A stretch of 64,000 nucleotides of DNA, taken from Lytechinus pictus. Taxonomy: Eukaryota. Where the stretch lies: NCBI RefSeq assembly GCF_037042905.1, contig NC_087245.1:34784001-34848000 (forward strand), in the 5' to 3' direction. The notes under the pieces were generated by a model that saw only the letters and a list, made by a program, of their open reading frames with translations, was not told the DNA's origin and ran no database searches. The position numbers were made by a program, and so were the translations under genes. The stretch's first letter is position 1, and each line of letters opens with the position of its first letter. Of this stretch, positions 6,701 to 55,801 are shown one piece after another.

Positions 6701-6714
6701 ACTGTCATTATTTG

Positions 6715-12295: not shown

Positions 12296-12298
12296 TTA

Positions 12299-23499: not shown

Positions 23500-23504
23500 C
23501 ATAT

Positions 23505-28311: not shown

Positions 28312-28473
28312 GTAAGTCAGCTTTAAAGGAAAAAAATCTTTTTATCGTAATTCTTCTCTGGAGTTTCTAAGTGAAGGTGGATTATATCTTGACACATTTA
28401 TAGGATGTTGCCAGAAACTTGGGATGAATTCCATATGAAGCTTGAATAAACTAAGTGCAAATGCATTGATTAA

Positions 28474-29900: not shown

Positions 29901-29994
29901 TGCCTTTTCTGCTTCAAAATTAATAGCTCAAAAGTATGTACATTGATTCCCCAGGCCGTGTCAGACCAAAAGACATAAAAAGATGGGAGTTACT

Positions 29995-31319
29995 CAGGGA
30001 AAAAAATTAATTTTTTTTTTCGGGGGCTCCATTTTAATTTTTTTGTCAAATTTCGGGGGCTCCATTTCTACCTTTCGGGGGCTACTCTTTGCATTTCGGG
30101 GGCTCTTTTTGAATGCTACTTTTTTGTATTTTGAGGATTACCTGTTCACTTATTAATGAATTATTACTTTTTGTTTGATATTGTATGATTTTGTAAGTTA
30201 TTTTTTTCATGCTTAGAATCTTGGGTGTGTGTGTGTGGGTGGATGTGTGTGTGTGTGGGTGTGACTGTGAGTTGGAATTGGATATAAATGAATTCAATAT
30301 GTAATTTCTACTCAGTCTATTCCAGTACAATACCCTGTACTCGGCCATGTACATGTAATAAATGCCCACATTATTTATCAAATACCCTAACTTTTTGTGA
30401 AGTTCTTTGAAAACGCAGATCTCCATGAAAATTGCATTTCTCTATGGGGGAGTCTAAATTTGGTGAGAATGTATTCATTAAGAACTTAAATATACATGAC
30501 AATGAAGAAATCATCAAACTTTATTGGCAGTTTTGAATAATATACCCGAAATGTAAACTCTGTCTGAAACAGAAAATCACCATCATTGAGGCCTTTACTG
30601 AGCGAATTGTCCCCCAGAGCTCTGGCAGAGAGACAGAGCTCAGACTGGCTAGCTAATACAAGCGCCAATGCGTGCGCCTGCCGCCGGCCTTGTAAAATAG
30701 ATGGAGCTTTGTTTGATGATTTATTGTCTGATATTTACCACATCCCCGAGAAAAATAAAACAAATGAATTTTAAGTTATAATTAATAAATAAGGTAAGTT
30801 ATTTTGGATGTTAATAGGCTGTTTTGAAAAGCAAAGCCGAATGACAACTCACCAATGATAGGTTACTAGACTCGAATTATTTTATCACAGAATTGTGATA
30901 ACTGTAGGGGAAACATGTGCATTAGAAATTGCACATAGTGGTAGTCATAATTGACCCCTATACATGCAACTGTTTCCCGACCATCGCGTTCATTTTTTTT
31001 CCATACCTGGTACCATGTGTGTGGAAATACGTGGTACAGGAAAAAAGACGCAACTTCGGAATTTGAAACTGCGCTCCTCGCTATTTTCAAGGCTTATTCA
31101 TGATTTTGAGTGTGGATTTTGGATGTTTTTTAAATGGTAAGCGGAGCTCGAGCATATGGCGCTAGTGGTTGGTTGAGTTGTTATCACTCGGCAATAATTT
31201 CGGGGGCGACATTCAGATTTTATGTCGCCCCCGAAAGCATGATTTTGGGTGATTTCGAGGGCGACTTTAGGCATTTCCGGGGCGAATTCGCCCGCCGCCC
31301 CCGTGTATTTTTTTCACTG
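29995..31319. mobile_element. hAT-like non-autonomous element with 8-bp TSD (gagttact), inserted in a SINE remnant
   Basis: gagttact|cagggaaaaaaa ... tttttttcactg|gagttact; subterminal cgggggc repeats. Confidence 0.8.
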
Positions 31320-31531
31320 GAGTTACTGCTACATGTACACTTTTTGACTTTCAACAATTTAAGAGATAGAGCTACATCAACCCGGCGCTACAATCAATTG
31401 GGCAAAATGATTTTTTTTTTTAATATTTCTATTCGCCGATTTCTATTTTGAAAAATGAAATATTTTTCCCTCAATATTAACAATATGCCCCCAAGGCATC
31501 CCATGAAATACTCCCTCAATTCTGATTTAAT

Positions 31532-31700
31532 GGGAGCATTATGGTCTTGTGGTTCAGACTTTTGCATTTCAATCAGAGGGTCATTAATTCAAATCCCAGT
31601 CATGGAATCATTTCCTTTAGTATTGAAATTTATCCACCCTGTGCTGCACTTAACCCGGGTGAGGTAAATGGGTGCCTGGCAGGATTTTATTCCTTTAAGC
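31532..31700 (+). mobile_element. Degenerate tRNA-SINE, same family as 19429-19716
   Basis: tttatccaccctgtgctgcacttaacccgggtgaggtaaatgggtgcc body and eroded A/B boxes. Confidence 0.7.
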
Positions 31701-31816
31701 ACAGAATGGATGCACTTCTCAAGCCAGGGAAATTATACTAAACTATTGTCTTCTGTTAAAGTAATTGCTTCGTGGTTTATAAGTACTAATTATTTCTTTT
31801 CTTCAATCATACACAG

Positions 31817-32291
31817 AAAGGGCCAAATAAAGAGCCTATCATAGCCCAGCTCCTTGTGTGCTTCATAGCTATCCTCTTCATCTTCATCGGTCAAGTCAAC
31901 TATCTTGGTCCTATCGTAACCATGCCTTTCCTCCTCTCCTATGCCGGTATCGACTACGCCTACTTCTCCCTGGCCATGAGCTTCGACCGCGTCGGCGGTG
32001 AGCCCGGGAAGGAGAAGGACAGCCTCCTCTCCCACGTCATCGATAAGAATCGACAGGATGGCACCTCGTACGGCGCCCTCGTCAACGAACCCGACGATGA
32101 TTCGAACCGCAGGGACTCGCTCTCAGAATTCAAGCAGGACATCGAGAAGGCAGAAAAGGCATTTGGAGTTTCGGATGAAAAGAAAGAGGACGGTCAAGAG
32201 AAGAATTCGGTTGAGAATGGAGGAAATCAGTATGGAGGTGTGGTCGGGATCAGTGATAAGGAGTCACTTATTGATTCACAAAATAGAGGGG
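31817..32291 (+). CDS. SLC12A8: SLC12A8 coding exon 7 (KGPNKEPIIAQLLVCF...GPIVTMPFLLSYAGIDYAYF + hydrophilic loop)
   Basis: cag| acceptor, G|gtaagt donor, 475 nt phase 0/1. Confidence 0.95.
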
Positions 32292-33075
32292 GTAAGTGAA
32301 ATCTTTTAAAGTGAGACAAGGACATTTTAGGTTTATCAAACAACAACCATGCCTGAGATTTAAAGAAAAAAACCCATAGACTATAAAACACTAAATTGTC
32401 AATAAAATCACCTATATAGAGCGCAATGTTTATTTAAAGCAAAATTTTAGATGTACTTTTACTATGCCAATTTAAAGGCACTATTGGACTTAATCTCAAA
32501 TGTAGATGTTTGACTTTGAAGCATTTTTGTTTACTTGATCAAATAGTAGCTGCCCGATCATGATAGTGATTTTAATTTTTGTTAGAACATGAAGCCAAAA
32601 AGTCATTAACCATAATGGAATTGAGCCTAAAAGAGTTGTAGAAATTCACTAAACCATAAAGCATTGGACATTGAATGTCAGCAGTTGTATTCGCACAATA
32701 TACTTGCACACAATGTAAGTGGCTGAAAAAATGAAATTAATCAAATTGTATCTTGACAAGAATTTTATATGAACTAATAATGAAGATAAGAGGGAAAAGC
32801 ATTCTTGCAGCATTATTACTACAGTTCTATCAAACAACTACCCTTTTTCCGCAAATCACATTTGATGTATGGTTATTTTGCTGCCTCGAATGAACTTTTA
32901 GCACAAAAAAAGAAAAATATTAAATAGTTATATAATGTTTTAACTATTTGAGATTGAAAAAAATCTATATGCATTTATATTGTGATATTGTTAACATACA
33001 AGTTGCAATCTTATATTCTTGCGTTGATCAAATATCATTGTTGGTTTAGCATGAAGATTATTACTTTCTTTTTAG

Positions 33076-33164
33076 ATTCCAAAGGTCCATTCAGTACAGA
33101 GATAACTCGCATGCCCCCATCATGGTATTCAAGATTCTGTAACAGATGGGTCTCTCTTATAGGT
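33076..33164 (+). CDS. SLC12A8: SLC12A8 coding exon 8 (DSKGPFSTEITRMPPSWYSRFCNRWVSLIG)
   Basis: tttag| acceptor, |gtaagt donor, 89 nt phase 1/0; CNxWVSLxG motif. Confidence 0.93.
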
Positions 33165-34797
33165 GTAAGTATTAAGCTTGTTTTATACTCACAATCATGA
33201 CTTAATGTAGAAACACACCCTATGAAGACGAAGATAGTATTATCACAAGGTTATAGAAATATTCTGAAATTACTGTGCTCATTATGAGGATGATTTAACT
33301 TTGTCAAAAGTAGACAATTTTGTTTCTGGTGGAATGAGGGATGTATCATATCTGTTTAATTTGTTTATTGATTATTTATTTTGTTATATTTATATGTTGT
33401 ACCCCATTATAGTAGACCGGCCAAAAGTCAAAAAGTGCTCTAGATAAGGATTCGACGGCAAAATTTGTTAATGCTTGGCATCCCAGCTAAAAGTCTTGCA
33501 AAAATACCCAGGAATAGCGTACTGAAAGAATGTCGAAAATCACGCATTTTGATATTTTGACGGATTATCATCATATTTTTGGTTATCTTTCATATGAAAT
33601 TATTTTTATTCAGAGTTTCAAATTATAAGTCTCATAAATATGCATTTCAAATTTGAATATTACACACACACACATATGGCACAGGGAAACATAAAACCGC
33701 GATTTCCTCATAATAAAAGTTTGTGAAAACTATCAATAGTTTGAAGTTTTTTTACGCAGCTTAAATTCTTCGATTTAACTGCGTTTATCCATCAAATGTA
33801 TAGTAAATGTCCTAATGTCACAAATATTAAAAGAATTTTCAAGTAAGATTTAAGATATCTCACTTCATGTTATCCGAAAGGAGACAATGTGCATTTTACC
33901 AGGTGCGCATTTTGAAAGAAAAATTGAAAATACCGTACATTATGTACATAATTACATGTATAAGTACATACTAAAGCGAGTTTTTAATTACATGTATAAG
34001 TGCACTCTAAAGCGAGTTTTTAATTGGATAGCACAATTTGTCAATTCTTTGCATCCCAGCTAAAAGTCTTGCGGAAATCCTGAGAAATAACGTACGGGCG
34101 TATACCAAGTGCACTTTTGCGTGAAAGTATCATTTTTTGCGTAAAATTTGAAAGACTGTTGAAAATCATGCATTTTGATATTTTGACGGATTATCATCAT
34201 ATTTTTGGTTATCTTTGATATGGAATTATTTTTATTCAGAGTTTTAAATTATAAGTCTAGTAAATATGCATTTCAATTTGGAATATTACACACACATATA
34301 TGGCAATATGAAATATAAAATCGTGATTTACTAAAAATAATAGTTTGTGAAAACTATCAATAGTATAATGTTTGTGTTCCGCATCTCAATTTCGTCAATT
34401 TTAGCGCTAACCGAATAAATACATAATAATTGTTGTCATGGCACATATAGTGAAAACAAATGTTGTAATAAGATGCAAGATATATCATTTTATGTTATAT
34501 ATGCGAAAGATAACAATGTACATTTATCGGATGCGCATTTCTGATAAAATACAAACAGCGCACAATATTACATCTATATTGCACATACTAATATCAATCA
34601 GTGCGATACTCGTCATGATCTTATATAGGATTATGTTTACTTTTGTAGAGTTCGATCTTCTTGCTATTTCCGCGAATTAATTGGTGCTGAACGTAAATCT
34701 ACCTGTGGCGATATTCATAAATAGGTCTGATATTTAATTTGCCGTTACCATGGTAACATTAATTTTGTAGGAATATCTATATCCAAAATCATAGAAA

Positions 34798-35038
34798 CAG
34801 TAGCGTACCTATAGGATTTTCCACAGGGGGGGGGGGGCAAAACCGTTGGCCAAAAAATTTGACAAGCAAAAAAAAAAGGTCTTCAAGCTCGTCAGGGGGG
34901 GGGGGCAAAAAAAGGTCTTCAAGCTCGTCGGCGGGGGGGGGGGGGTGTGGCATGGATACGTCTTTTGCATGGGTTGGGACTCGTCAGGGGGGCAGACTGC
35001 CCCCTCTGCTCCCCCCCCCCCCCGTAGGTACTCTAGTG
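34798..35038. mobile_element. Poly-G/poly-C hAT-like MITE, 8-bp TSD (catagaaa)
   Basis: catagaaa|cagtagcgtacct ... aggtactctagtg|catagaaa. Confidence 0.8.
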
Positions 35039-36343
35039 CATAGAAAATATACATGTATGAATAAAACGATCGAATTAGCATGTTTAAACTACTCTGTCAA
35101 TCTACATTTTACTTCAATTATTGGATTATCAAAGTCTAAAAAAATATGGCCGTTACCACGGCAATACCTATTTTTTGTCTCGCCTGCATGCATAGCAGAG
35201 CAGGACTAAAGGAGCCACTTTTCCGGCGGAGGCGACGGTAGTTTTGATATAACAGCGTCATATCAACCTTGAAATTTTAACCAAGGTTACGTTTTCGAAA
35301 TTTCTATATAACTTTGAACGTATAGAAAAAAATTAATGACACTTATAACAGTATTCAGGTATTACTGATCGTCTTGCACAAGTTTTAGATCACATGATTA
35401 AGGTCAAATGTCATTTAGAGTCACTGAACTTTGGCCATATGGGGATATTTTTTCTTAATGTCATCATAACTTTTGAATTCTAAAATTGGGAAAATGAGCT
35501 ATGGACACTGACATAAGCCTTTTGAAAGAAGATGCATGGAAGTGAGGGGGAGGGGAAACTTGCCCCCCAAAAAAAATCAAGAAAAGGCATAAAACAACAG
35601 AAGCAAAATAATAGAAAGCTTGTTGGGGAGGGGGTCATTTAGTTATTTATTTATTTAATTATTTATTTATTCTTTTATTTATATATCTATACATATTTAT
35701 TTATTTATTATAACCTCAATTGAATGTAAATATTGTAATTCTAATTTTTTTTTTAAATTAATAAACACAAATTATTCCCTAAATTAAGGCTTTTGCTTAA
35801 AAGACTTGGTCAGTCAGCTCACTCACCAGCAGCGTAGCTAGGATTTTGTCAGCAGAGGAGCACGGGGGCGGGGCTTGGTATTTTGCAGGGGGTACCAAAA
35901 TAGATTGATTCATCAAGTATTTATTATTAAGTACATATTAGCTTTATTCTCACAAGCACGATTAAGTATCTGACAAGGCCCATTTGAATAATGCGAGCGC
36001 GAAGCGCAAGCATTTTTATAATATGCAATGAAATTTAGAGCTGAAATTTAGAAAGTTACACAATTCGTAAGTGTAATCACGAACATTATTGTAATGTTAG
36101 AAATTTCAGAAATTTTTAATATTCTGACGTGAAAACGGAGCATTTAATACATATCTTAAAAAAATGATATATAGGCTATTGATGCGAGTCCGAAACGCAA
36201 TCTGATTTTTATATTCCAATCCGTAAACTGGACATTTTGATGACGTTTTGAAATAAAGAATGTTATGTATCTGTTTTTAAAAATCCAGCACAAGCCGAGC
36301 TGGCTTTTTTTAAATTAGAAACGAAACATTCTAAGGCGCGATA

Positions 36344-36545
36344 GGGGCGATAGCTCAATCGGTAGTGAGGGGGTTTCGGATTCCGGTGGCCTGGGTTCAA
36401 TTCCCACTTGGCGCGCTAGTGCCAAGTAAGGCATTTAAATGGTAGTAAGGCATTTTAGTCCTATAGGTCCCTCGGAGAGTACCTTAAGCCATCGGTCATC
36501 TGGTTGCTTGCTTAGAAGCATTCACGCTTTCTTAGCAAATGAGGT
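36344..36545 (+). mobile_element. tRNA-derived SINE (possibly Deu-domain type)
   Basis: ggggcgatagctcaatcggtag (A box), gggttcaattccc (B box), gtccctcggagagtaccttaagccatcggtc body. Confidence 0.65.
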
Positions 36546-36995
36546 AAAACAAAAATCGTCAAATCATGAACAATGATCAGTATTTAATTATAGCATTTGA
36601 TGCGAGCGCGAAGCGTGAACTGAAAATGTCGAATTAAACGAAGGATTTTAAACATGTTTTTAATGTAGAAAAAGATGAATATCTTACTTAACAAAAACGT
36701 TAGCGCAAAAGCGCGAGCTAAAATTGGGAGAGACTAAGAGCTAAAGATCGGACATACAGTATTCACATTTATTTAATAATGGACTGGATGCGACTGGATT
36801 CTGAGAAGTTGACACTTCAAGCAAGGTTTTTTTTAAACAGATAGCAAGTTGTTTATCTCATATATTAATGCCAGCGCGAAGCTCGAGTCGAAAATTTATT
36901 TGCCATCTTTTTGTAATCTCGTGTAGGGTGCCTATCTCGCTAAACCACAATAAAATATACACTCGAATCGCGAGCAGAATACTTTGGGTATATTA

Positions 36996-37173
36996 CAGCG
37001 GCGTACCCAGGATTTTCCAAAGGGGGGGGGCAATTTTTTGGAGGATATTTCGTCCGCGAAAAAAAATTACAAGCAAAAAAAAAGGTTTTCAACCACAAAT
37101 AAAGGATTTTGTACCAATAAAAAAAAATCGTCAGGGGGGGGGGGGGCCAGTCTGCCCCCCCTTTATGCTAGTG
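36996..37173. mobile_element. Poly-G hAT-like MITE, 8-bp TSD (gtatatta)
   Basis: gtatatta|cagcggcgtacccagg ... tatgctagtg|gtatatta; same family as 34798-35038. Confidence 0.75.
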
Positions 37174-38740
37174 GTATATTATCTTGAAAACGGGATACTT
37201 TCAGCTCCATGTAATCCTTTCGGACACTACACATGACCTTAGGCAGCGGGGGAGGGGGGGGGAAGAGGCAGTTGCGGCCAGAAATTTTGTAACTCGTTTT
37301 AAGTATGTACTTATTCATGTAATTATGTTAACAATTTACAGTATCTTCAATTTTACATTCAAAAGGCCCCCCCCCCCTTCCCGCTAAATTTTGCATACCC
37401 CCTTTCGGAAAATGTTTCTTTCATCTTACTTGAAAATTCTTTTAATATTTGTGACATTAGAAACGATCGATATTCAATAGATGAACCAATTTAAATCGAA
37501 GAATTTAAGTTGTAAAAAAACTTAGAACTATTGATAGTGTTCACAAACTTCTATTTTGAGTAAATCACGATTTTTTATGTCGTATTGCCATATATGTGTG
37601 TGTAATATTCCAAATTGAAATGTATATTTAGTAGACTTATAATTTGAAACTCTGAATAAAAATAATTTCATATCAAAGATAACCAAAAATATGATGATAA
37701 TCCGTCAAAATATCAAAATGCGTGATTTTCGACAGTCTTTCAGATTTCACGCTAAAAATGATACTTTCACGCAAAAGTGCACTTGGCATCCGCCCGTACG
37801 TTATTCCTCAGTATTTCCGCAAGAATTTGAGCTGGGATGCAAAGAATTGACAAATTGTGCTATTCAATTAAAAACTCGCTTTAGTGTGTACATATACATG
37901 TAATTAAAAACTCGCTTTAGTATGTACTTATACATGTAATAATGTACATAATGTACGGTTTTTTCAATTTTTCTTTCAAAATGCGCACCTGGTAAAATGC
38001 ACATTGTCTCCTTTCGGATAACATAAAATGAGATATATTCCATCTTACTTGAAAATTCTTTTAATATTTGTGGCATTAGGACATTTACTATACATTTGAT
38101 TGAGAAACGTATTTAAATCGAAGAATTTAAGTTGCGTAAAAAACTTTAAACTATTGATAGTTTTCACAAACTTTTATTATGAGGAAATCGCGGTTTTATG
38201 TTTCCCTGTGCCATATGTGTGTGTGTAATATTCAAATTTGAAATGCATATTCATGAGACTTATAATTTGAAACTCTGAATAAAAATAATTTCATATGAAA
38301 GATAATCAAAAATATGATGATAATCCGTCAAAATATCAAAATGCGTGATTTTCGACATTCTTTCAGATTTTACGCTAAAATGACACGTTCACGCAAAATT
38401 GCGTTTGGCATCCGGCCGTACGCTATTCCTGGGTATTTTTGCAAGACTGTTAGCTGGGATGCCAAGCATTAGCAAGCATTAACAAATTTTGCCATCCAAA
38501 GTATAAAAAATCGTTTTGGCCGGTCTACTATTAGTGATCATTTGTATTGTTTTCTAAGGAGCCCTATATATATACACTTGAACATTATTTCTCTTTTTGT
38601 TACTGTTGAACTAACTCCCGAAGGAACTCCAAAATCAATCTTACTGTTCACATTGTTTTTTTCCCCTACAGGCTTTAATATCTGTTGCAATCATGTTCGT
38701 CATCAATCTTTCTCGTCACTTGGTTTTCTTCTCCCTACAG

Positions 38741-38916
38741 GCTTTAATATCTGTTGCAATCATGTTTGCCATCCAATGGGGCTATGCTCTTGCCAACGTG
38801 TGCGTATACTTAATCGTCTACATCTATATTGGCCAGGCTAATCCGGGAGTAAAACCAGGCGTGGCCGACTTTCAGTTTTTCAGGTGGATAAAATCCCTGT
38901 TCCAGAGGCTTCTCAG
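38741..38916 (+). CDS. SLC12A8: SLC12A8 coding exon 9 (ALISVAIMFAIQWGYALANV...YIGQANPGVKPGVADFQFFRWIKSLFQRLL); alternative in-frame start 38672
   Basis: ctccctacag| acceptor, AG|gtatga donor, 176 nt phase 0/2; IMFxIQW and YIGxAxPG motifs. Confidence 0.95.
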
Positions 38917-42225: not shown

Positions 42226-42556
42226 GAAACCATCTCCGGTTCCTGAGCAAATGATCCTCAGTCCGTTCCCGGACAACATGGGCATAGAGGAGTCTAGTGT
42301 CAATCGGGATAATGAAGATTTTGCCGACCGCCATCGTTTCCACCACTCATCCGTCGTCGAGGGCAACAACTTGGTTGATGACCAGCCCTTGTCTGCCGTT
42401 CAGGCCATCGGTGGTGAATCGGAGGAGGAGTTCTCTCCTCAAGATAGTCTTCCACATTTACCACATACAAAGAGGCATTTAGAAATATTGAAAAAGGGTG
42501 GCGAGAGTCAACCTTTACTCATAGAGACAGATAAAGTATATAAACCCAGCATGTGA
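42226..42556 (+). CDS. SLC12A8: SLC12A8 alternative last exon A (KPSPVPEQMILSP...DNEDFADRHRFHHSSVV...ESQPLLIETDKVYKPSM*)
   Basis: ccttag| acceptor, phase 2 compatible, carries the SLC12A8 C-terminal EQxIL and NxDFAxRxR[YF]HHSS motifs, open to TGA. Confidence 0.85.
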
Positions 42557-43659
42557 TCTGTTTATTCTTATTTTTGTTTCATTTTTTGTTTTTTTTAATG
42601 CTTATTTAAAGTTTACTTGATTACTACTTTTACTAGTACATGTATTGCTCCACATGAATATAGATTTATCTGCTATTGAAAAAGTGGACAGCATCCACAA
42701 GAATTTTCCTGAAAAGCGGCACCCTAAACTATGATTCAAGAGCATGCCGTTATTAAAGACAACCTAATCACATATCTTGTGCGAGTGTCCTTGTTTTACA
42801 CCTCTTAAAAAGGAATTTCATGTAATTTGGACATACAAGTATATGACTGTTTGATATAGCAATGGGGTTCAGATTTGAGATGTGAGGTTGGGTTTGCAGT
42901 CAACTTTTCATCAGGGTTTTATTGAGGTGGCATAAATGATTTCCATCCTCAAGTCAGTGCAAATTACATACCGTTTTGTTTAGTTTATCGTAATTTAAGG
43001 GCTTTTTACTAATTTTGGGTATTTGTAACACTTTATTTGTGTTGTGTGCATCCCACCCCCCCCCCCCAAAAAAAAAAAAAAAATAAAGCAATATATATTT
43101 CATAAATAAATGAATAAGAAATATATTAATCAATCAAAAAAAAAGATTAAAATGACCCTGAATTTTTTTTTTTTTTAATGTTGTCCACTCTTCATTGGCA
43201 GTGACCCCTTTGGCCATGGGCTACATCCTGTCATTTGACGCTATGGGCTAAAATTTGCCCATGGGGTAAGGTGAATCAAATCATGTGATGCATTATTTTA
43301 TATTAAATTAAACCGACCATCTTGAATCTGCGCCATCAAGCTTTGAGTCAGTCTGTTTTTAGGAAAAGGGTGAAAATCTGTCAGTCTATTCATTTCATGA
43401 AATTATTGACTTAAATATGTACATTGTAAGATAAGATTTGAAGTTTCCATTGATATCAAAATCTTATGAAAAATGTTTAGAGTTATACTGCTAAACCTGA
43501 AGTGAATTTGTCAATGTGTGATGCTTTAAAGTTATTTAGTATTTGATATGAAAAAAAAATGAAAATCCATGTTTCATTGTTTAAAATGAAATCTGAAGTA
43601 GAAATACTACTGTGTAGCACCAGAATGACGTAGCTCTATCCCTTGAATTGTTGAACTTC

Positions 43660-43760
43660 AAACAGGGTAGCAGCAACTCCCTTCTTTTAACGTCTTTTGG
43701 TCTGACGTTGCCGAGCTTGAATTCCTGACCCCCCGGTTGTGAGACGGACGCTCTAACATC
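43660..43760 (-). mobile_element. tRNA-SINE fragment
   Basis: Minus strand gttagagcgtccgtctcacaacc...cgtcagaccaaaagacgttaaaagaagggagttgctgctaccctg; similar to 29945-29994. Confidence 0.55.
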
Positions 43761-46700
43761 CCGGTTGGGTCAGACATGTTTTGTCAACTTTATTGATGAA
43801 AATTTATTTGTCAATAGGGCACGACTAGGACCCTGTTTCGTGAAGCTTGTTCTCAATTGCAAATCTTAAAATTCCTTGACATATTTCGTCTTATTGAATC
43901 ATGTTTTTGTAGTTAAGTATAGTTACCTCATTGATGAAAGGTTATATTAAACAAGGAAGGACCATATACCGAAATAGTATATTTTTGTACGTATACATGT
44001 TACATGTGTGAGTTGGTTTTAATTCAGTCTGAGAATTGATGAAAAATGTATTCCGCTTTTTCAGCCTATTTCCATTATTCAGGTGGCTAGATATTTCTGA
44101 AATAAAAATTTCTAGAACTTGCTTTTAGAATATATAATAAAATGATTTAGTGATATTTTACATATATTGTGCATGATCATATTCCTTCATAATTAAGAAA
44201 AGCTACATGTTCAAATATTATACAAGGGGTCTTGGCCTGTAGAAAGTTGGTGGTATCACAGTCATTGTTTTTATTTACATGTAGCCCCATCAGTAATTTA
44301 AATATTGTTTACATTGGTGGCCTATATTACATAACAACATTGAAATACAACACGATACTTTAGTGGTATAAGCCATTGGAACTTAACAACTGAGGCAGTA
44401 TTCAAACTTGGATTTGTTTCTAATTTCATATCCAGTTCAACATTTGGCTTTCTACTTTAGTCAGCCAAATAATGCCCAACGAATGTGTTGCACCAATTTA
44501 AGCGCTACTCTGTACAACTCAAGATTTCTGCATATTTAAAAACTAGATTTTTTTTCTTTATGAGAGATGTCTCAATAATAGGATAGAGAATTAGGTTTAA
44601 AAAAAAACCAATTTCATTAATGGTATAACCAATTCAGCCAAGTATTTTGTATGAGCCAAATTCTAACTAAAATATGGATTCATTTTTCTGACTGAACTAT
44701 TGAATTGAATGTTGATCCTATATCAGTCTTAGAAGGGCACACTTGCCATCACTAATGTCATTTTTGAAGGGTACCATTTTTGGCAATATTACTAGATTCC
44801 AGGGTTCATGGTGACAGTATTTATTGGAATTCTGTATTGTATTTTACAGCCTTTCTTTTTCTCTTTGGTCAGAATAGCGCCATAAAATAAATTCAGATAT
44901 TAATAATAATATACGGTTTGTAATGTTTTAGGCGCGATATCCATCTCGTCAGAGATGCTCAAGGCGCACAAGTGAAGGGGGAGGGGGCAAACAAACTGGC
45001 AAGTAACAGAAAGTCATTGATAAAATGAGTTAAAGAGGTAAGTTTTTCTATTCAAATCAATTTTAAAGCCCTTTACTGTTCAGGAATAGACTATCATTTC
45101 ATGGACAATTGTCCCATTTGGAATAGTGATATAAGAAGAATCATACATCTAAGGAAGTTCATTTGCATAATAAAAACATTCCAGGAGAGTGCTTCATCAA
45201 CATTTTCATCCGACAAGTTGTCAGATCTGACATCTTTATCTGATGTTGATTGGCTGAGAGGTACTGTTACTATGGTAACTGTCGGATAAAATGGGACTTG
45301 TCGGATAAAACGTCCGACAAGTCCCTTCATGAAACGCCCCCCCCCCAGAATGTCTTAGTTAAGCTTTGGTATGTAGGCATTAGGCAGAGTAATGATTGGT
45401 ATTTGTATAATTTACAATGATTCTTGGTAGACATAGGGCCTGCTGGCTGCAGTGGAAAAGGACAATATAGGATTAGCTATTTTGTTTACATTGTTAATTT
45501 CACTGAGGTGATTCAAGAGTCTTCTAGAATTGAACTGCTCTAGAAAGGAGAATGTTCTTTTTAAAGACAATACTTTAGTATGCTTTCAGAATAGTGGAAA
45601 CTTAAGCTGGCAGTTTCTACATCACCAGACTTTATGTCAGAGCATAGTTTATTTCCAACTGGAATACAACATTTATCTTCTGTGGAATTATTTGCACACC
45701 ATCAATGAACTGTTTGCAGTTATTTTGAGAGAGGAATTCTCAGTTCTCATCGAGGTCATCAACCTGTTTTAATGAACCCTTTCAACCCATGGATTGCTGA
45801 AATCGACTGTTTATCATCACCAACTTTGTCTTCACGGACATTTCAACTCAGTACAGTGACTCTTATTATTCGTTGTGTTTCAACATCAATTTCTTCATCG
45901 CCAGCATTGTGGGCATTAATTTGAGGAACCTTTGCCAGCCAACTTGAATATGTATATCATTTGGAAATTTGTGGACTAACCAGAACTGACACTTCAAGAG
46001 ATATATGTGTAAATAATTAAAAAGTAAAAATAATCTAATCAAAATTTTCTTTATTTGTTCGGTATTCATTATCGCAACAATTTTGATATATTTTTTATTA
46101 TTTTTTTTTAAAGCAAAATTTTAATTCAAAACACAACTTAAGATAGCAAAAAAAATATGTGTGAAAATAAAAATGATTTAATTACTAATGACAGGAATGG
46201 ATCCAGGATTTATCGGGGGAACACTTCCCCGACTTCCCCCTAAACTAAGAAGTAAATAAATAAAGCACACTTTTTGACAAGCAAAAAGTAATCTGATTTT
46301 CATTCTCATATTTATTGTTCATAATGGGATGTATTTAATCTACTTAGGGTTGTATGTGATCTTTTGCAATAAAGGTTGCAAGTATTCATTCTTTCGTTGT
46401 TAATCCTAAATTATAATGCTCACTTTTTTGGGGGGGAATTACATGTAAATTGTAATTTAAAATATTTATAACTTGATTTCTAATGTATTTATTTGAAAAT
46501 CTATTTATTCATAAACCAGAATAAAATTAGCAACAAGGTATCAATTTCTTTCAATTTTGTTCTTCCCATTACAATCAAGTTTAAATCATTTTTTTATCAC
46601 TATATGTTAAATCACCTTCTTCACTTCTGATGTACATCAAGTTAAAATTGCCATGTGATTACTTTCCCTTTTCTGAGGTTTGAAATTACTGATTTTAATC

Positions 46701-48250
46701 CTCAAATTGGTAACAACTACATGTATAAAATAACAAAATAAATACCCAGTTACATAATTTGAAGGAAAAAAAATGTGGATATAATACAAACTTATGAACA
46801 ACATTTTCAAGATTCTATTAAAAGGCCACAAATCTTGCATTTTTGATTTTTGAAATAATGATTTTGTTGTTGTGTTGCCAAATTATAGAGTGTGATGATT
46901 GGCATCAGTTGAATAGGTATGCCAATTGTGGTAACGATCTCGAAATGAATATGAACAGAATCCAATAAAAATGACCACCCTAGTTTTTAATGTATGAAAT
47001 AAAAATATGTGCCAAGTTCTCTGAAAGAAAATGTGTAATTGCTGAGAAATAAGCAAAATAAACATTGAATTCCATCAAATATCAGGTATTTTGCCAAGTA
47101 ATATTAATTAACTTTCCCACATATTGTTAGTGATCCTAAGTGTTGTCAGTTTTGAGCTAAGATTTCATGATTTCACAAAGATAAGTTCATATTACTGTAC
47201 CAGCTTTAGATGTATGATAATGGACAAATGGCCTTGATTTTAAAAACTTTTTCATGAAATAATGGTTTGCTGCAACTACATTTTTTTTACCTTTAAAAAG
47301 CTTCTTTCACTCGAAATGTTATTCCTTTGTTTTTAAAGTACATTTTTGTCCTTCTACCACATTCCATGTACATCCGTGCCTTGCTAGTATTGAGAATAAA
47401 AAGAAGCTGCAAAAGTATTTCATTGAGAATTTTTACCTCTATCTATGAATGAAACATATTACTTGAGGTATTTATATTGGGAATGATGTGCAGTACATAT
47501 TTGAAACTGAAATTACTTATGTGATTTGTACAGAACTAAGAAGATGTATTATTTATTTTATTACATTGTCCTTTTATTGTGTCAAACCAAAAATACATAT
47601 TTGTATATCAAGTATTCCTAAATTATACATTGCATTACATGTGTATATTCTTTTTGAAGATTGTATATTTCAATCAAATTCATACATGTAGTAATTTATT
47701 CATGTTTACATGTTAAAGTTGTGACTTGTAATTCGGTATATTGGACTGATTAAAATTCTGATATATGATCATAAACAATGAAAGTAATTATTTCTCGTAG
47801 ATCTATTAAAAAAAACCAATATCATACCATTATAAGTATGTTGTTGGCCTTGTGCAAATTAAACACACTGATATTCATAAACATTTTAATTTGGCATAGA
47901 TGTAGATAATCTTTCATTATGAATGATAGTCTGATTGTGCACTAATTGGAGGGTTGACCGGACTGGGAAATACTGGTAAATACCTCCGCAATATTTTTTT
48001 TAAAGGAAAATGGGAAATAGTTGGAAATTCAGGGAAATACTACAAAATGTTTTTTCTAATATTTTCCAGTGTTTCTTGAGTATATTAGCATTCATCTTTC
48101 CAGCATTTACGAGTTTCTCCCAGTATTTTCTACCTGGAGAGGAGGCACATGTACCTCATTCAATTCCCAAGAGAATGCCAGTCCTGACTGGATTATTTCC
48201 ATAATTTAAAGTTGTAGGGAAACTTAGCATGTTTGTGTCATATTATTGTA

Positions 48251-48412
48251 CAGGTAACTCTGCCCAAGTCCAATCTTTTGGGACCGCATAAATCTGATCG
48301 ACTTCGATGAAATTTGATTTAAAAGAGGTGTATAACACATGTTTTGGATAATATGGTAAAAAAAATTTGCTTTGACTAATAGGCAAATATTCGACTTAGG
48401 CTGAGTTACCTG
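48251..48412. mobile_element. Tc1/mariner(pogo)-like MITE, TA TSD
   Basis: ta|caggtaactctgcccaagtc ... gacttaggctgagttacctg|ta. Confidence 0.75.
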
Positions 48413-48947
48413 TATTTTACTTTACAAGTTCTGACCATGAACTTCATTGTCATGTTCAATTCAATTGAATTTTGATTTATTAGATATAAAACATATATAT
48501 ACAAACAATACAATGCTGTAGTCCGAAGACTAATTGTGCAATGTTTACATTGAAATATTATTTGCATTCGAAGATTGTATGTACACTTCAAATTATTTCA
48601 CACTTAATGAGGAAACAGTTGGTTGATTGAGACATGCATAAGTGAGATTTTATTAGATGATACCAGCCTGGGATTCTGATAGTTGTGTATAGAAAAAAAA
48701 TGTTTTAAAGTTAAAACATGTAACAAAAAGGTCAGAAATATAACTCAGATTTGATATGAAGTTATGAAATACAGATTTGGAATCAAGTTATTGCAACAGA
48801 ATTGATCATAGTTAATAGAAAATTTATATAAAAAACAAAACCTTTGAGATATGAAATCCATTCATAATAGAACGGAGATTGCTTTGAGATATGTGGTCTA
48901 GGCTGGTAAAATAATGAATAGTAATTCTTAAGAAAAATCAAGATTTG

Positions 48948-49915
48948 AAGTGATGGTCCAGGCTGGAAAAATTTGTATCTCATTAAGTAGAGTAAAATCC
49001 ATGGAGCAAAATTCTGAAAATTTGATCAAAATCGGATAACAAGTAACAAAGTTATTGAATTTAATGATTTGCATCATTCTGGTGAAACAGTTCTACATGT
49101 AGGCATGTTTTTATGAATATTCATTAGGTGGGCTGATGATGCCATATCCCCACTTATTCTATTGTATTTTATTATATGATATTAAGTTTATTCAAAATTT
49201 TTCTACCAAGAACTCAAACAGTTGGATTGACAACTGATTAAGTGCATTAGTTATTCATTGCCGCAACTTATGTCATCATAATTACACATGTATGAAAAAA
49301 TGAAACATTTATGATTTCCTGTAATAACATAAGAAAAGGAAAGTTGGGGATGTGACATCATCAGCCCACCTTATTAATATTCATGAAAATGTGCATATTA
49401 CTGTTTCCTCAAAATCGGATAACAAGTAACAAAGTTATTGAATTTAATGATTTGCATCATTCTGGTGAAACAGTTCTACATGTAGGCATGTTTTTATGAA
49501 TATTCATTAGGTGGGCTGATGATGCCATATCCCCACTTATTCTATTGTATTTTATTATATGATATTAAGTTTATTCAAAATTTTTCTACCAAGAACTCAA
49601 ACAGTTGGATTGACAACTGATTAAGTGCATTAGTTATTCATTGCCGCAACTTATGTCATCATAATTACACATGTATGAAAAAATGAAATATTTATGATTT
49701 CCTGTAATAACATAAGAAAAGGAAAGTTGGGGATGTGACATCATCAGCCCACCTTATTAATATTCATGAAAATGTGCATATTACTGTTTCCTCAAAATAT
49801 TGATAAACTTAAAAATTCAATAACTACATTATTTGTAATCTAATTTTGATGAAATTTTCAGCATTTTGCCACGTGAATTTTGTTCTATTTATTTAGATAT
49901 ATATATTTTCAGGCC
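48948..49915. mobile_element. Kolobok-like element (family of 16696-18626) containing a 383-bp tandem duplication
   Basis: gatggtccaggctggaaaa start, shared aggtgggctgatgat / atcatcagcccacct internal IR; 49027-49409 repeated at 49410-49792. Confidence 0.75.
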
Positions 49916-50044
49916 TAGTGGTTGGTCTAGTGTACCACGCACTCTAAACAGAATCACCAACATGATTTTTGCTAGTGATCATGTTGATGATCTTTTTAGA
50001 GTGCGTGGTACACTAGACCAACATGGTTATCACAGGGAATAAAT

Positions 50045-51290
50045 ATTGAAATCTTAACCAAGGTTAAGTTTTTTAAATGTTGTCATAACTTTGAAAGTAT
50101 ATGGACCTAGTTCATAAAACTTAGACATAAGGGTGATAGTGTATCGCTGAAGATCCTGCCTGAGTTTTAGGTCACATGATTAAGGTCAAAGGTCACTTAG
50201 GGTCAACGAACTTTGGCCATATTGGGGGAATTTGAAGGATTGTCATAACTTTGAAATTTTATGTATCTAGTTCATGAAACTTGGACATAAGAGCAATGAA
50301 GTATCCTTGAACATCCTGTGCTAATTTCAGGTCACATGACTAAGGTCAAAGGTCCTTTGGGGTCAACAAACTTTGGTAATGTTGGGGGTATTTGTGGAAT
50401 TGTCATAACTTTAAAAGTCTATGGATCTAGTTCATGGAACTTGGACATAAGAGCGGCAATGTATCCCTGAATACCCTGTGTGCGTTTTAGGAACATGGCC
50501 AAGATCAAAGGTCATTTAAAGGTCAATGAACTCTGGCCGTGTTGGGAGTATGTGTTGAATTGGCATCACAACTTAAGAAGTTCATAGATCTAGCTCATGA
50601 AACATCGACATAAGGGTAATCAAGTATGAATGGTTGTTCAGGGACTCAGTTTTATAATTATGAGGGGAGCAATAAAAAGCTCTCCTAAAACTTTCAAGGG
50701 GAGCATTAGCGGAGCACTACAAAAAGCTCTTCTTTGACATACAAGGGGAGCTCTCTTGTCCGATTTCAAAATGGATGGAGGAACGTACGCTAATTTACAA
50801 CCCACAACCAAAGGAGACAAACAATCAGATATAGATCTATGCAATATTAATCTCATTGAACTTTTTAATGTCATTCTTGCAAGTGTGTTTAATTGCTTAC
50901 AATATAGTTGTGTGGTATTCACACAACCTTGACAGCGAATGAAGTTTTCAAGGATGACTCGAACAGTTTGGTCATCGACTGACAATCTTGTTAAGCAATT
51001 GCTGAGGCGAGTGATAAATCGCTCTACCAAAAATGGATTAAGGAGAGCGGTAGCGAGTGATCACTCTCACTCCCCTTAAAACTGAGTCCCTGGTTGTTTT
51101 GCACATGTCTTAGGTCACATGATCATGGTCAAAGGTCATTTTTGGGTTCAAATGGATATAATATTTTATTATCATATTAGTGTTTTCTTCTGTGAATTAT
51201 TATTTATTGGCTGTTTTGAAAGGAATCACTGCTGCTATTGCTATATTGAATTGCGTAATGCAGGCGAGACTGCCAGAGGCGTTCCACTTG
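50045..51290 (+). mobile_element. HINE-like subfamily A, interrupted by 50639-51092
   Basis: Tandem cores, 3' atgcaggcgagactgccagaggcgttccacttg. Confidence 0.7.
50639..51092. mobile_element. CAGGG-ended hAT-like MITE with 16-bp perfect TIR and 6-bp TSD (gttgtt)
   Basis: gttgtt|cagggactcagtttta ... taaaactgagtccctg|gttgtt. Confidence 0.85.
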
Positions 51291-51373
51291 TATAGGAATG
51301 AATTCCACCCTCTCATCATGAAAAATTGTCAGAAGGCTTGTAAAAAGTACTTTTTAAAAGATGATACATCGTT

Positions 51374-52684
51374 TTTGTCTCGCCTGCATAGCAGAGCGAG
51401 ACTATAGGCGCCGCTTTTCCGACGGCGGCGGCGGCGTCAACATCAAATCTTAACCTAAGGTTAAGATTTTGAAATGACATCATAACTTAGAAAGTGTATG
51501 GACCTAATTCATGAAACTTGGACATAAGGTTAATCAAGTATTATTGAACATCCTGCCTGAGTTTCAGGTCACATGACTAAGGTCAAAGGTCATTTAGGGT
51601 TAATAAACTTTGACCATGTTGGGAGAATTATTTTCAAAATCTTAACCGAAGGTTAAGTTTTTGAAATGACATCATAACTTAAAAAGTATATGGACCTAGT
51701 TCATGAAACTTAGGTATAAGGTTATTCAAGTATTAGTGAACATCCTGCTCGAGTTTCAGGTCACATGACCAAGGTCAAAGGTCATTTAGGGTCAATGAAC
51801 TTTGGTCAAGTTGGGGGTATTTGTTGAATTACTATCATAACTTTGAAAATTTATGGATCTAGTTCATGAAACTTGGACATAAGGTTAATCAAGTATTAGT
51901 GAACATCCTGTTTGAGTTTCAGGTCACATGACCAAGGTCAAAGGTCATTTAGGGTCAATGAACTTTGGCCAAGTTGGGGGTATTTGTTGAATTACCTTCA
52001 TAACTTTGAAAATTTATGGATCTAGTTCATGAAACTTGGACATTAGGTTAATCAAGTACCACTGAATATCCTGTGCGAGTTTCAGGTACCATGGTCAACG
52101 GTCATTTAAGGTCAATGAACTTTGGCTGTGTTGGGGTTATTTGTTAAATTACCATCCTAACTCTGAAGGTTTATGGATCTTGTTCATAAAACTTGTACAT
52201 AAGAGTAATCGAGTATCACTGAACATCCTGTACGAGTTTCAGGTCACATGACCATGGTGAAAGGTCATTTAAGGTCAATGAACTTTGGCCGTGTTGGGGG
52301 TATTTGTTAAATTACCATCCTAACTCTGAAGGTTTATGGATCTTGTTCATAAAACTTGTACATAAGAGTAATCGAGTATCACTGAACATCCTGTACGAGT
52401 TTCAGGTCACATGACCATGGTGAAAGGTCATTTAAGGTCAATAAACTTAGGCCACGTTGGGGTAATTGTTGAATTGCCAGAGTGAATGAAATGAGGACAT
52501 GGGTGTAGTTGACAAGTCTTAAGTCACCGTTCAAATGTCATCTATGGTCAATGAACGTGGTATTATGTCATTATATGAATGGTGTTTTTGTGAATGATTA
52601 TTTTATAGTAGTTTTCAAAGTTAGCACTGCTGCTCTATTAAATAGTGTAATGCAGGCGAGACTGCCAGAGGCGTTCCACTTGTT
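51374..52684 (+). mobile_element. Complete HINE-like subfamily A element with long core-repeat array
   Basis: ttttgtctcgcctgcatagcagagcgagac 5' subTIR/IR, (GGC)n, tandem cores, 3' atgcaggcgagac subTIR then tgccagaggcgttccacttgtt; T-rich insertion site. Confidence 0.8.
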
Positions 52685-54001
52685 TACTAAATTTTACGGT
52701 TGAATATTTAAACACAAGTCAAAATTTGCTATAATTGGAGTTTTTGCACATCTCTATCAATAAAATTGATAGAATGTAGTGACAATTATTTTGGGGAAGA
52801 GTATCTTCAACAATATTCATCATTTCACGGTTCAATGAACATTTGATTAAAACAAAAATAAAATTTTCAAATATAGGCCAGTATTGTTTCATTTTGGGAA
52901 CTGAAATTATCTTATCAACTTTTTTTCGTTATGTTCATGATAAATTACCATGCTTTAACGATTCAAAGGCGTTTGATTAAACATTCAGGCTTGAATGAAC
53001 TTGTGGAATGTGAATTGCCAACTATGGATATCTGTCACAAACATTCTAGCAGAGTTCATTTGATTTGATTTTTTATGAAAATCCCGATGTCTATTTCAGT
53101 GAGCACACAATATTAGAAAATTATGCAAATGAAAAGAAATTTCAAGGCCTTGGCCCCACTCTGCCGTATCAAATGATTATTTTGGTGTGGGCATCTTTAG
53201 GATAATGTCACTCTGCAGCTTTGTGCAAAGTTTTATGAAAAAAACTGTTGGCAGAAGTACCAAAAACCGTCCATGAAACAGGCGCTCATTTTACTTTTGT
53301 TAAAATTTTAACTTCCTCTCTCACGGACATTGTGTACACAATGGGTGTGTATATTTAAGATTTTTTTCAAGGCTGTCTTTAGCAATGTAATTTGGCAATA
53401 ATGTTATCGTATGGGGAGAATTCTGAGTAAAAATGAAATCGTTTTATTTATGAATGAGTGAGTACGCATCAAAGGGGGCAAAATGGCATTTTCAATGCCA
53501 CAGACTCATTTTGCAAAAGGGGTTAGATCCACAATGGAAATATTAAAAAAATATATATATTTTAAAAAGTTGAAGACAGATTTCTTTTAAACCCTATTTC
53601 ATATTCACACGGCAGGGTAGTACATCATGGCAATTTAGTTTCTCATAAGAATATCGAAATATGGGAGAATAAAACACATGATTTTTCTCGGAATGGTCCA
53701 AAGTGGATCTAACCCCTTTTGCAACCAAACTCTTCATAATGTTAAAAAGAAACAAACAAGATTTGGTCCATTTCCGATGGGGCCTAGCCTGGACTACTGG
53801 TGCATTGTGGACAAGCAAAAGCTTGTGATGGGGCAGGCTCAGTGATTTTTTTTTTTTACGCTGGCGTTTTTGTTCTTGCTTGTCCACATGTCTTGATTCG
53901 TCGGCACAAGCCGTAACCATGGTGCACCAGGCAGAATGGTCTTCAATTGATTCTTCCCTGGTGCCTAGGTTGATGCCACAGCACTTCAGTGAAGATTTCA
54001 G

Positions 54002-54403
54002 AGGGCGGTGCTACACCAGCTCGAGTTTGCTCAATCTCGAGATTTTAGCCCTCTTGGCCCTCTTCATGATTAATCTCGAGATTCTAGAAACCCTGTCTCC
54101 ACCATCGCAAGAAGAAAAATTCCTGCTCAAGCGAGGCATCGATGCATTATGGTCTCACGCCGTGAATAAATAATCCCGAGTGCGTCTGCACTTGCGAATT
54201 AGCGGAATAATTTGTAAAATAGCGCGCTATTTTGCAAATAATCCCAAGTTGACTTGGGATTGCAATCTCGAGATTAATCCTACGAACTAGCGCGATAATT
54301 GCGTCTCCATTACAAATAATCTTGACATTGTTCAGATCGGAATAATTTGCTGGATCAGAAATAGCGCGCTTATTTGAAAACTCGGGCTGGTGGAGACGGC
54401 CCT
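54002..54403. mobile_element. Harbinger-like MITE, copy 1
   Basis: agggcggtgctacaccagc ... gctggtggagacggccct. Confidence 0.75.
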
Positions 54404-54648
54404 ACAATGTCTTTAAAGCGCTTCCTCTCACCGTCAGAGCACTTGCCTTCAAGGTCCCTTGAAGAGGGCACTGAAGACCTGAGTCCTCTGGTTATTAACA
54501 AGTAACCTTTGTAGATGGGTGATATTACATCCACTTTTAGGCAAATTAGTGGGGGCAAAATGACTGACTCTTTATATTGCCTTTTTTTGCATTTTTCACT
54601 GAATTTTTTGTTCACATTTTACTTCCCCCCCCCCCTCTATTTCATTAG

Positions 54649-54820
54649 ACGGTCATCACCCACCACCGAGCACATGGTCGTCCCGTCGCAGAATTTCGCT
54701 CCCAAGATGACCACGGAACAACTGACAGAGGATAACGAAGACTTTGCCTCTAGAGGGCGCTATCACCAGTCCATGATGAACCAGACGAACTTGGAGGATT
54801 ACGAGTACGTCAATAAATAA
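54649..54820 (+). CDS. SLC12A8: SLC12A8 alternative last exon B (RSSPTTEHMVVPSQNFAPKMTTEQLTEDNEDFASRGRYHQSMMNQTNLEDYEYVNK*)
   Basis: Strong polypyrimidine tract + ttcattag|, phase 2 compatible, QLTxxNxDFAxRxRYH motif like the vertebrate SLC12A8 tail; gives ~720 aa. Confidence 0.9.
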
Positions 54821-55801
54821 GCATGAGAGGCTCTGGAGGGAGAATTATCAATGTGGACGATAATAAAGAGAAATATGATAGATAGCACAGGAGTGATGAT
54901 GCATTTGTGTACCTTTTTTTGTCCCATTGTACATGCCAACCATTCTAAGATACGGTGTATTATGGTAGCACATGACCTTTGACTTGGTGAGCAAGGATAT
55001 TATAAAGATCAGAATCCTTTATTTAAAACAATACTTGAAACCTGTGCCAAAGGTTCTCACAATGCAAATTCACTCTGTATTTTAGCTGACACCAAATGTT
55101 AAACTTGTCATAGACAGTGATAATATAATGTATTTTTAGCAAAGAAATGTATTCTTTTTCTTGTGTGAATGTATTGCTGTTGACATATTGTACTCTTGCC
55201 ATGTACCATTGTAATCATTAATTTATTTATTCCGAGAACGAGTACTGGGTAGGTACTTTATGTTAGTTTAGATTGTTTTAATGTGTTTCAGAAAATTATT
55301 GTATTCAGGGATGGTCATATAGGGCAGTTTCAAAAGGAAAACATTGACAGTGATAGTTTATTTTTTTTAAATAAACATGATATCAATAAGATATTTCAGA
55401 GATCAGCTCAGCTGAGAACTGTTTAAAAACAAGACTGTATAATATATGCCATTATTTTGCATACAACAATCATACCTTTGTATTTTGTGCGTTATACCTG
55501 AATAATCAATTCACTCAAGAATCAGTGATATGCATAAATTACGGACATGAAAATGTATAGGGATACTTGGAAGTGAAGCAGGTGTGGTACTATAGCCAAC
55601 GATTGAAATACAAAAAATTAGAAACGCATTGTTGCTAAAGTCCTTTACTCTTGTATATTTTATTTATTTCATTCACTGTGATATATAGGAATGGTAGTTT
55701 GCTGTGTTTATTTGTTTTGGTTTAGCCAGCTGTGACATTTAGTACAATCCTGATAAAGTCCAAATAATCCCAAGATTAAAATTGATAGAGTTGGTTTACG
55801 A

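Follow-up and report, generated by a model that had tools for sequence, protein, structure and literature searches.

Two homologous last exons of SLC12A8 in echinoderms that may alter transporter sorting

Organization of the SLC12A8 locus

The window, that is the whole 64-kb stretch of Lytechinus pictus DNA analysed here, carries on its forward strand a gene for SLC12A8 (CCC9), in which nine shared coding exons are followed by two tail exons, hereafter A and B, lying in tandem on one strand of the one gene, with equal splice phase and separate stop codons. In the features below, the inner borders of the shared exons are accurate to a few bases, those of exons 5-6 less so.

1931..38916, + strand: nine shared coding exons of SLC12A8/CCC9 (664 aa), from mapping of P0001 on the window and an acceptor scan
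about 1931-2167, 12924-13076, 22188-22379, 24837-25068 and 26067-26356, + strand: shared exons 1-5
about 28175-28311, 31817-32291, 33076-33164 and 38741-38916, + strand: shared exons 6-9
32012..32272, + strand: two acidic dileucines in the shared large loop, EKDSLL (32012-32029) and DKESLI (32255-32272), present in both isoforms
38741..38916, + strand: exon 9, encoding the last two membrane helices and then another helix, with the phase-2 donor common to both tails
42226..42556, + strand: terminal exon A, coding part (109 aa and TGA), 98% match to RefSeq XP_054760151.1
42308..42349, + strand: conserved family tail motif in A, DNEDFADRHRFHHS
42503..42520, + strand: acidic dileucine ESQPLL (isoform A residues 757-762, 11 residues from the end), a putative sorting signal
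42557..44535, + strand: probable 3' UTR of A, from run X1 contigs, 3' limit approximate
54649..54820, + strand: terminal exon B, coding part (56 aa and TAA), identical to the S. purpuratus X2 tail
54731..54772, + strand: conserved family tail motif in B, DNEDFASRGRYHQS
54821..55700, + strand: probable 3' UTR of B, from read-word content, 3' limit approximate

Exon 9 ends at 38916 (AG/gt, phase 2), and the acceptors lie at 42226 for A (ccttag/G) and 54649 for B (cattag/A). As the first-pass annotation had claimed, this donor leads in frame into either exon, A being open through 109 aa to its own TGA ending at 42556 and B through 56 aa to its own TAA ending at 54820; since the nine shared exons give 664 aa, the isoforms amount to 773 aa (A) and 720 aa (B), the very sizes it had predicted. 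Exon B has the strongest pyrimidine tract among the 12 acceptors scored (22/24, run 17), the tract of exon A being weaker (17/24, longest run 8). Each exon has its own poly(A) signals downstream, with AATAAA at 43082, 43105, 44101 and 44136 for A and at 54862 and 55370 for B. Contigs of run X1 match 42539-42871, 44097-44283 and 44254-44535 with zero mismatches, while 94-96% of the words of 54649-55700 are present in 4 runs presumed to be RNA.

The label of mutually exclusive exons first given to the pair is better replaced by that of alternative terminal exons, probably chosen together with poly(A) use, a class that PMC8373072 keeps apart from strict mutually exclusive splicing. Joining of A to B through a donor within A was also considered, and no donor there matched the patterns used; comparison of the two flanking introns for inverted repeats, by which an RNA stem might loop exon A out, gave nothing better than E 0.41.

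Homology, distribution and conservation of the two tails

Tails A and B are homologous, as had been proposed: their protein alignment holds 18/49 identities (pairwise E 4e-8), their cores are identical at 14/45 positions with the family motif common to both, and when the two were run by tblastn against the entire window, the only strong non-self match of either was the other (E 6e-5 and 1e-5), the next-best matches standing at E 1.7 and 2.8. That the protein motif is kept at low nucleotide similarity also holds, codon-aligned DNA identity being 44% over 45 codons and blastn of both exons with their flanks giving no match below E 0.1.

In 12/12 database pairs, from 11 species of all five echinoderm classes (crinoids, brittle star, sea cucumbers, starfish and sea urchins), tails A and B are attached to the same protein body, the two members of a pair agreeing at every position as far as the junction residue (642-673 aa). 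This evidence is mostly computational annotation, with both isoforms predicted by RefSeq for 10 named species; besides, full-length B-tail proteins come from Logan assemblies (P0026, P0051 and P0052, on 2.4-4.7 kb contigs), and Logan is among the listed sources of a full-length A-tail protein, P0169.

It is extremely improbable that a dead copy, the exon of a paralogue or a haplotype misassembly has been joined to the gene by annotation pipelines. Read alignments covered 38500-48700, with exon B outside and tables filled by repeat-derived reads; none of the rows shown for 4/21 listed runs, 36 joints and 928 loose ends lying beyond these rows, joined exon 9 to A, nor did the 4 runs yield a called transcript end in this interval. 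Raw-read depth on exon A was ~1-2 reads per run, and the run search listed no RNA run as containing the sequence. Among the records inspected, three further species show one tail only; L. pictus is represented by A, and A. rubens and D. setosum by B. The missing joint and these one-tail records would suit an artefact, against which stand the genome and its relatives: searches of the L. pictus genome, which score best candidates only, found exon 9, A and B once each, inside the window, speaking against a separate paralogue; the 44% DNA identity excludes A and B as two haplotypes; and both tails are intact in the 11 species of five classes, where stops or frameshifts had been named as a possible refutation. 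Both tail exons are very probably functional.

The two tails have not evolved alike. B is slow-evolving and has a short, acidic-aromatic end, like the tails of hemichordates, amphioxus and molluscs; A, an extended tail, ranges from about 57 to 109 aa across species and mostly bears [DE]xxxL[LIM] near its end. Mean within-group core identity is 0.47 for A vs. 0.67 for B, and the A core of urchins shares only 14-17 of 44-45 residues with that of other classes. An old duplication under purifying selection in both copies had been suggested: the age and the retention of both are borne out by the five classes, with the correction that constraint is unequal, B being far more conserved than A. Three core columns read P, G and HH in every database A tail (11/11), while in every database B tail (11/11) the first of these columns holds S/G and the last Q. 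No conserved C-terminal PDZ-type ending was seen by eye among A or B tails.

The tail core motif is kept from corals to mammals. No second motif-bearing tail was found among the vertebrate, amphioxus, hemichordate, tunicate, protostome and coral proteins inspected, in keeping with the single motif ascribed earlier to vertebrate SLC12A8, and a profile search for broader outgroups gave no recognisable new A-type tail among the best 76 new entries screened.

Origin of the duplication

B tails form one clade, with crinoids in and every A out (support 98/90 in the first tree and 90/91 in the wider-taxon tree), so placed that duplication of the tail exon before crinoids split from other echinoderms is supported by the tail sequences. 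A tails are not one clade in the free trees, and A monophyly is not rejected (p-AU 0.16 in the second tree, 0.43 in the wider-taxon tree). These tests of origin use 53 columns, the second tree omitting three unnamed rows and two window rows, and the wider-taxon tree omitting window rows and P0071 and placing a long coral branch inside vertebrates. An echinoderm-only origin has p-AU 0.30 and 0.375 in the second and wider-taxon trees, respectively; A with vertebrates is the best topology in the second tree (77/81) and has p-AU 0.065 in the wider-taxon tree. Outside echinoderms, HH/HQ flips often (64 vs. 57 tails).

A far-reaching combination, which we hold to be very unlikely, is that of a regulated switch sending A to endolysosomes and B to the cell surface with a duplication in the deuterostome ancestor, vertebrates having kept the A type (G-M, HH), hemichordates and amphioxus the B type, and echinoderms alone both. 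If true, such a deuterostome-old exon pair would make echinoderms a natural experiment on where a human orphan transporter works.

Protein identity and predicted structure

Named matches among the 120 listed are all SLC12A8(-like) or hypothetical, with one exception, a stray NCBI label on an entry whose UniRef name begins with "Solute". Identity to vertebrate SLC12A8 orthologues is about 47-51%. There is no solved SLC12A8 structure among 35 PDB sequence matches, and the structural description relies on models, in which the body has the predicted 12-helix fold of cation-chloride cotransporters (CCC) without their large C-terminal domain: the membrane domains of NKCC1 and NCC are matched with TM 0.83-0.84 as scored by target, the isoform A model matching that of NKCC1. 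Exon 9 encodes the predicted helices at residues 599-616, 618-638 and 651-663.

In both models the tails follow the last helix and are of low confidence, and a folded tail domain, considered as a candidate, is unsupported by either. With pLDDT <50 for residues 712-773 of isoform A, its tail is predicted to be unstructured, as well as cytosolic, the side being taken from the established topology of NKCC1 and the model match. The A model has two weak strands (684-688 and 704-708, pLDDT about 47-62), which the B model is without. As a further idea, the SLC12A8 tail may be what is left of the first strand in the C-terminal domain of CCC proteins.

The acidic dileucine and the role of the tails

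Acidic dileucine sorting signals follow the consensus [DE]xxxL[LI], extended in our count to admit M in last place. So counted, the motif is present in 10/12 A tails, one of them ending in LM, and in 0/12 B tails, as well as in 0/96 distinct non-echinoderm tails (1/121 after widening). In echinoids and asteroids, it lies 11-12 residues from the end despite two-fold differences in tail length, and FETQKLL is common to the A tails of a crinoid (Anneissia) and the brittle star. Its chance per A tail is 0.06-0.19 by shuffling, and 0.08-0.10 per tail in real cytosolic windows of the family, while B tails after the core are too short to hold it often (shuffle chance 0-0.017); the four-class product of 2e-4 is post hoc, the motif having been chosen after the sequences were viewed. 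Besides, the shared loop of 11/11 echinoderm bodies has one or two acidic dileucines, and such a motif is present in the N-terminus or loop of 51/85 family members; in other words, B is not signal-free, and A has an added signal rather than the sole one.

Within the family, mutation of EXXXLL in SLC12A9 is reported to move this lysosomal ammonium-chloride cotransporter from the lysosome to the plasma membrane (bioRxiv 10.1101/2023.05.22.541801), and a C-terminal dileucine to send NKCC1 (SLC12A2) to the basolateral membrane (PMC7727275). Like them, isoform A may have a location that depends on a dileucine; while in these accounts the motif is constitutive, N-terminal in SLC12A9 and C-terminal in NKCC1, it is extra and linked to an exon in echinoderm SLC12A8.

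The best overall reading, which we favour at slightly better than even odds, is that the alternative last exons of SLC12A8 alter the sorting of the transporter, and the same modest preference applies to sorting as the main difference between A and B. The last coding exon would have been duplicated in tandem before the crinoid split, so that one transporter body can be finished with either tail. Exon A would be used upon recognition of both its poly(A) site and its relatively weak acceptor; whenever A is passed over, splicing would continue to the strong acceptor of B, which makes B the probable main form. From its sequence, the A-tail dileucine is a candidate signal for binding AP clathrin adaptors, through which the A extension would direct the isoform to endosomes and lysosomes or to the basolateral membrane, and the choice of exon would then set where the transporter works.

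Sorting alone leaves the strong difference between the A and B cores unexplained. It may be, though we consider it rather doubtful, that both exons function primarily through the core motif, via different cytosolic partners or a fold-back tuning activity or dimerisation, the dileucine being secondary. The core, though retained from corals to mammals, shows consistent A/B differences, both sea-cucumber A tails are retained without a canonical dileucine, and the weak strands are confined to the A model; their low pLDDT, the lack of a known partner and the fast drift of the A core, in which the dileucine nevertheless persists in four classes, weigh on the other side.

Still less probable is a switch working mainly at the RNA level, in which separate 3' UTRs and transcript ends 12 kb apart would make stability, translation or localisation depend on tissue or stage, A needing only to stay tolerable as a tail. 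While the faster evolution and variable length of A and the separate poly(A) signals agree with it, the fixed residues proper to A, together with its dileucine in four classes, argue for selection on the protein.

Known systems and significance

The tails of LAMP2 bear lysosomal sorting signals. In human, LAMP2 with three duplicated 3' exons is among 77 C-terminal cases of the 236 tandem exon duplication-derived substitutions reported in PMC8373072 and PMC9741552, an ancient class enriched in membrane proteins, in which, as predicted for echinoderm SLC12A8, homologous 3' coding exons are swapped on one body. The supplement of the human catalogue gave 0 matches to SLC12A8, and, unlike the human events, the duplication of its tail is confined to echinoderms among the proteins inspected: the tail motif is the same elsewhere, with two tails in echinoderms and one in the other animals inspected. 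Within the SLC12 family, exon 4 a/b/c of SLC12A1 (NKCC2) is likewise a set of alternative exons that arose by tandem duplication (PMC8373072), although these are described as internal and strictly mutually exclusive in vertebrates while those of SLC12A8 are terminal. Thus the event class of duplicated C-terminal exons, as well as both isoforms as database entries, is already known. The earlier remark that such a tail-switching system was not known to be described stands insofar as no paper on both isoforms was found, but not as regards the isoforms themselves, already predicted in RefSeq; no description of the phylum-wide retention and the A-linked dileucine was found in the literature.

SLC12A8 is the least understood cation-chloride cotransporter. 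An orphan proposed to carry polyamines and amino acids or NMN, its substrate is reported as disputed even in mammals (PMC13607439, PMC8904813), and its location as mixed cytoplasmic and membranous (PMC8904813). In echinoderms, both tail exons have been retained since before the split of the five classes and differ by a recognisable sorting motif. This split dates back roughly 480 million years or more. Tails A and B are a natural pair of variants on one transporter body, in tractable embryos, with which the role of the tail and the link between location and function of SLC12A8 may be approached.

Two homologous terminal exons of SLC12A8

SLC12A8 (CCC9) spans 53 kb in the window, its closest named proteins being Lytechinus pictus SLC12A8 records. 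Exon 9 ends in phase 2 at 38916 and continues in frame into either of two terminal exons, each with its own stop codon.

Shared exon and alternative terminal exons (window positions, forward strand)
38741-38916, exon 9, the last of nine shared coding exons
42226-42556, terminal exon A, 109 aa
54649-54820, terminal exon B, 56 aa

Since the body shared by both forms is 664 aa, the isoforms are 773 aa (A) and 720 aa (B) long. At the protein level the two tails align with 18/49 identities (E 4e-8) and are, within the window, the sole strong non-self match of each other; codon-aligned DNA is 44% identical over 45 codons, and blastn of A against B returned nothing with E < 0.1. The exon 9 donor, the coordinates and open frames of A and B, their homology, their low nucleotide similarity and isoform sizes of about 773 and 720 aa, as proposed in the first-pass annotation, are thereby confirmed. 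Searches of the species' own 812-Mb genome recovered a single exon 9, a single A and a single B. Of note, a 69-bp tandem duplication (38634-38773) carries a copy of the exon 9 acceptor, at 38672, with a pyrimidine tract equal in quality to exon 9's own; use of this candidate acceptor would insert 23 residues, in frame, inside the second-last membrane helix.

Other features of the window
8293-8382, alternative first coding exon, replacing the conserved exon 1931-2167 in the L. pictus RefSeq model XP_063960482.1 (P0017, 724 aa)
41168-41447, candidate third last exon, non-homologous to A and B, matching L. variegatus isoform X3 (protein record P0018)
49026-52479 and many introns (span of the repeat group), 383-bp tandem repeat, two copies, 99% identity
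Same span, 160-190-bp tandem arrays and palindromic MITE-like elements

The candidate last exon at 41168-41447 is probably noise, given its poor acceptor (10/24 pyrimidines), near-zero read depth and a stop position that is not the same in L. pictus and L. variegatus.

Distribution and age of the duplication

Searches that used either tail or the C-terminal half as query, followed by opening of the clusters, recovered both tail types in echinoids (Lytechinus variegatus at two loci, Strongylocentrotus purpuratus, Diadema antillarum), starfish (Acanthaster planci, Patiria miniata, Asterias amurensis), sea cucumbers (Apostichopus japonicus and Holothuria leucospilota, the B form of the latter being a Logan protein from the same cluster), the brittle star Amphiura filiformis and the crinoids Anneissia japonica and Antedon mediterranea. 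Records with a single tail were A only for L. pictus and B only for Asterias rubens and Diadema setosum. The two L. variegatus loci are near-identical and annotated with both tails at each (P0013/P0015, P0016/P0019); their contigs are given the same length, and they are possibly an assembly duplicate.

Outside echinoderms, the tail motif was matched in 198 proteins (121 distinct tails), no chain of which carried it twice, and no species had two motif-bearing tail types among the annotated tails inspected, which speaks of annotation rather than genomes. These outgroups include two hemichordates, several amphioxus records, Ciona, lampreys, jawed vertebrates, protostomes and corals.

In trees built on 53 alignment columns, B tails form one clade with crinoids in and every A out (98/90; 90/91 in the second tree), and the duplication therefore predates the crinoid split. 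A tails do not form one clade; a tree with a single A clade is not rejected (p-AU 0.16, 0.43). A single origin of A is favoured by the residues fixed in 11/11 A tails (P, G, HH) and by the FETQKLL common to the A tails of a crinoid and of the brittle star. As to a possible pre-echinoderm origin, grouping of A with vertebrates obtained 77/81 in one tree and a p-AU of 0.065 in the other; an echinoderm-only origin of the duplication was never rejected (p-AU 0.30, 0.375). B evolves slowly, its core in the window being identical to that of S. purpuratus at 45/45 positions and to that of starfish at 33-34/45; A evolves fast (36/45 and 16-17/45, respectively). With bodies identical up to the junction arginine in 12/12 A/B pairs (identical stretch 642-673 aa) and crinoids within the B clade, the old duplication with both copies kept, as first suggested, holds: the two-tail event is real, old and conserved phylum-wide.

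Transcripts and exon choice

Reads of 4 of the 21 runs listed were mapped over 38500-48700, which includes exon 9 and A. In run X1, the 7/30 bins of zero depth were all non-coding, so this run looks unlike whole-genome DNA. X1 contigs without mismatches reached depth 8 over A and 3-5 downstream of it, and the bin directly upstream of A was empty in all four mapped runs. Exon 9 bins were several-fold deeper than A bins in X1, which fits A as the minor form, contig depth being a poor measure. Raw reads covered A at a depth of about 1-2 per run. No exon 9-to-A junction was among the joints listed for the four runs in this interval, where abundant RNA reads from elsewhere pile on intronic repeats (~39900-40200, 41700, 45200, 47050). 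Regarding B, 94-96% of the words of the exon and 0.9 kb downstream were present in four runs, the RNA status of which is guessed. Better, indirect evidence that both forms are spliced comes from RefSeq models, present for 10 named species, and full-length Logan proteins: B proteins are recorded on 2.4-4.7 kb Logan contigs, although the gene extends over 53 kb in this window, and one A protein record has Logan among its sources.

The acceptor of A is the weaker (17/24 pyrimidines, vs. 22/24 for B), poly(A) signals are present for both, and no stem to loop out A was found. The acceptor and poly(A) site of A may thus compete with read-through to B.

A known class of event

SLC12A8 A/B belongs to the known class of C-terminal tandem-exon substitutions; in human, C-terminal cases amount to 77/236 tandem-exon events, LAMP2 among them (PMC8373072, PMC9741552). 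A term search of the human catalogue's supplement did not return SLC12A8. The event was not described among the matches listed on echinoderm SLC12A8/CCC9, on sea urchin SLC12 splicing, on SLC12A8 C-terminal isoforms or dileucines, or on echinoderm alternative last exon duplication, as judged by listings and abstract starts and with few subscription journals covered. The isoforms are already in databases, unremarked.

The tails as linear-motif regions

The predicted structures consist of an NKCC1/NCC membrane fold, then a helix and a low-confidence tail, so the A/B exchange swaps a linear-motif region. The topology known for the family places this region on the cytosolic side. B is short after the core and ends in an acidic-aromatic stretch resembling that of hemichordates, amphioxus and molluscs; crinoid B tails (protein records P0055, P0176) end in KKAF, absent from other B tails, which fits a dilysine ER-retrieval pattern.

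A extends past the core and carries a dileucine, [DE]xxxL[LIM], in 10/12 tails, the two without it being sea cucumbers, as opposed to 0/12 B tails and 0/96 outgroup tails (1/121 in the wider set); shuffling puts the chance of the motif in an A tail at 0.06-0.19, and real cytosolic windows put it at 0.08-0.10. In crinoids, brittle star and starfish the acidic residue of the A motif aligns, by eye, with the glutamate of the old [FY]E end, so that the motif may have arisen when this end was slightly extended. Besides, a look-alike seen by eye in echinoid A, DQPLS/DQPMS (about 42383-42397), some 40 residues before ESQPLL (42503-42520), suggests that an internal duplication lengthened the urchin tail.

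Among relatives of SLC12A8, dileucines sort SLC12A9 to lysosomes (bioRxiv 10.1101/2023.05.22.541801) and NKCC1 to the basolateral membrane (PMC7727275). Such motifs are held by the shared loop of the SLC12A8 body in 11/11 echinoderms, and by the N-terminus or loop in 51/85 family members; common to both isoforms, the loop motifs count against a clean A/B sorting switch. None of the 7 echinoid, asteroid and ophiuroid bodies has the N-terminal motif; the sea cucumbers do have it, and there it could compensate for an A tail without dileucine. The sorting hypothesis for the two tails is both specific and testable.
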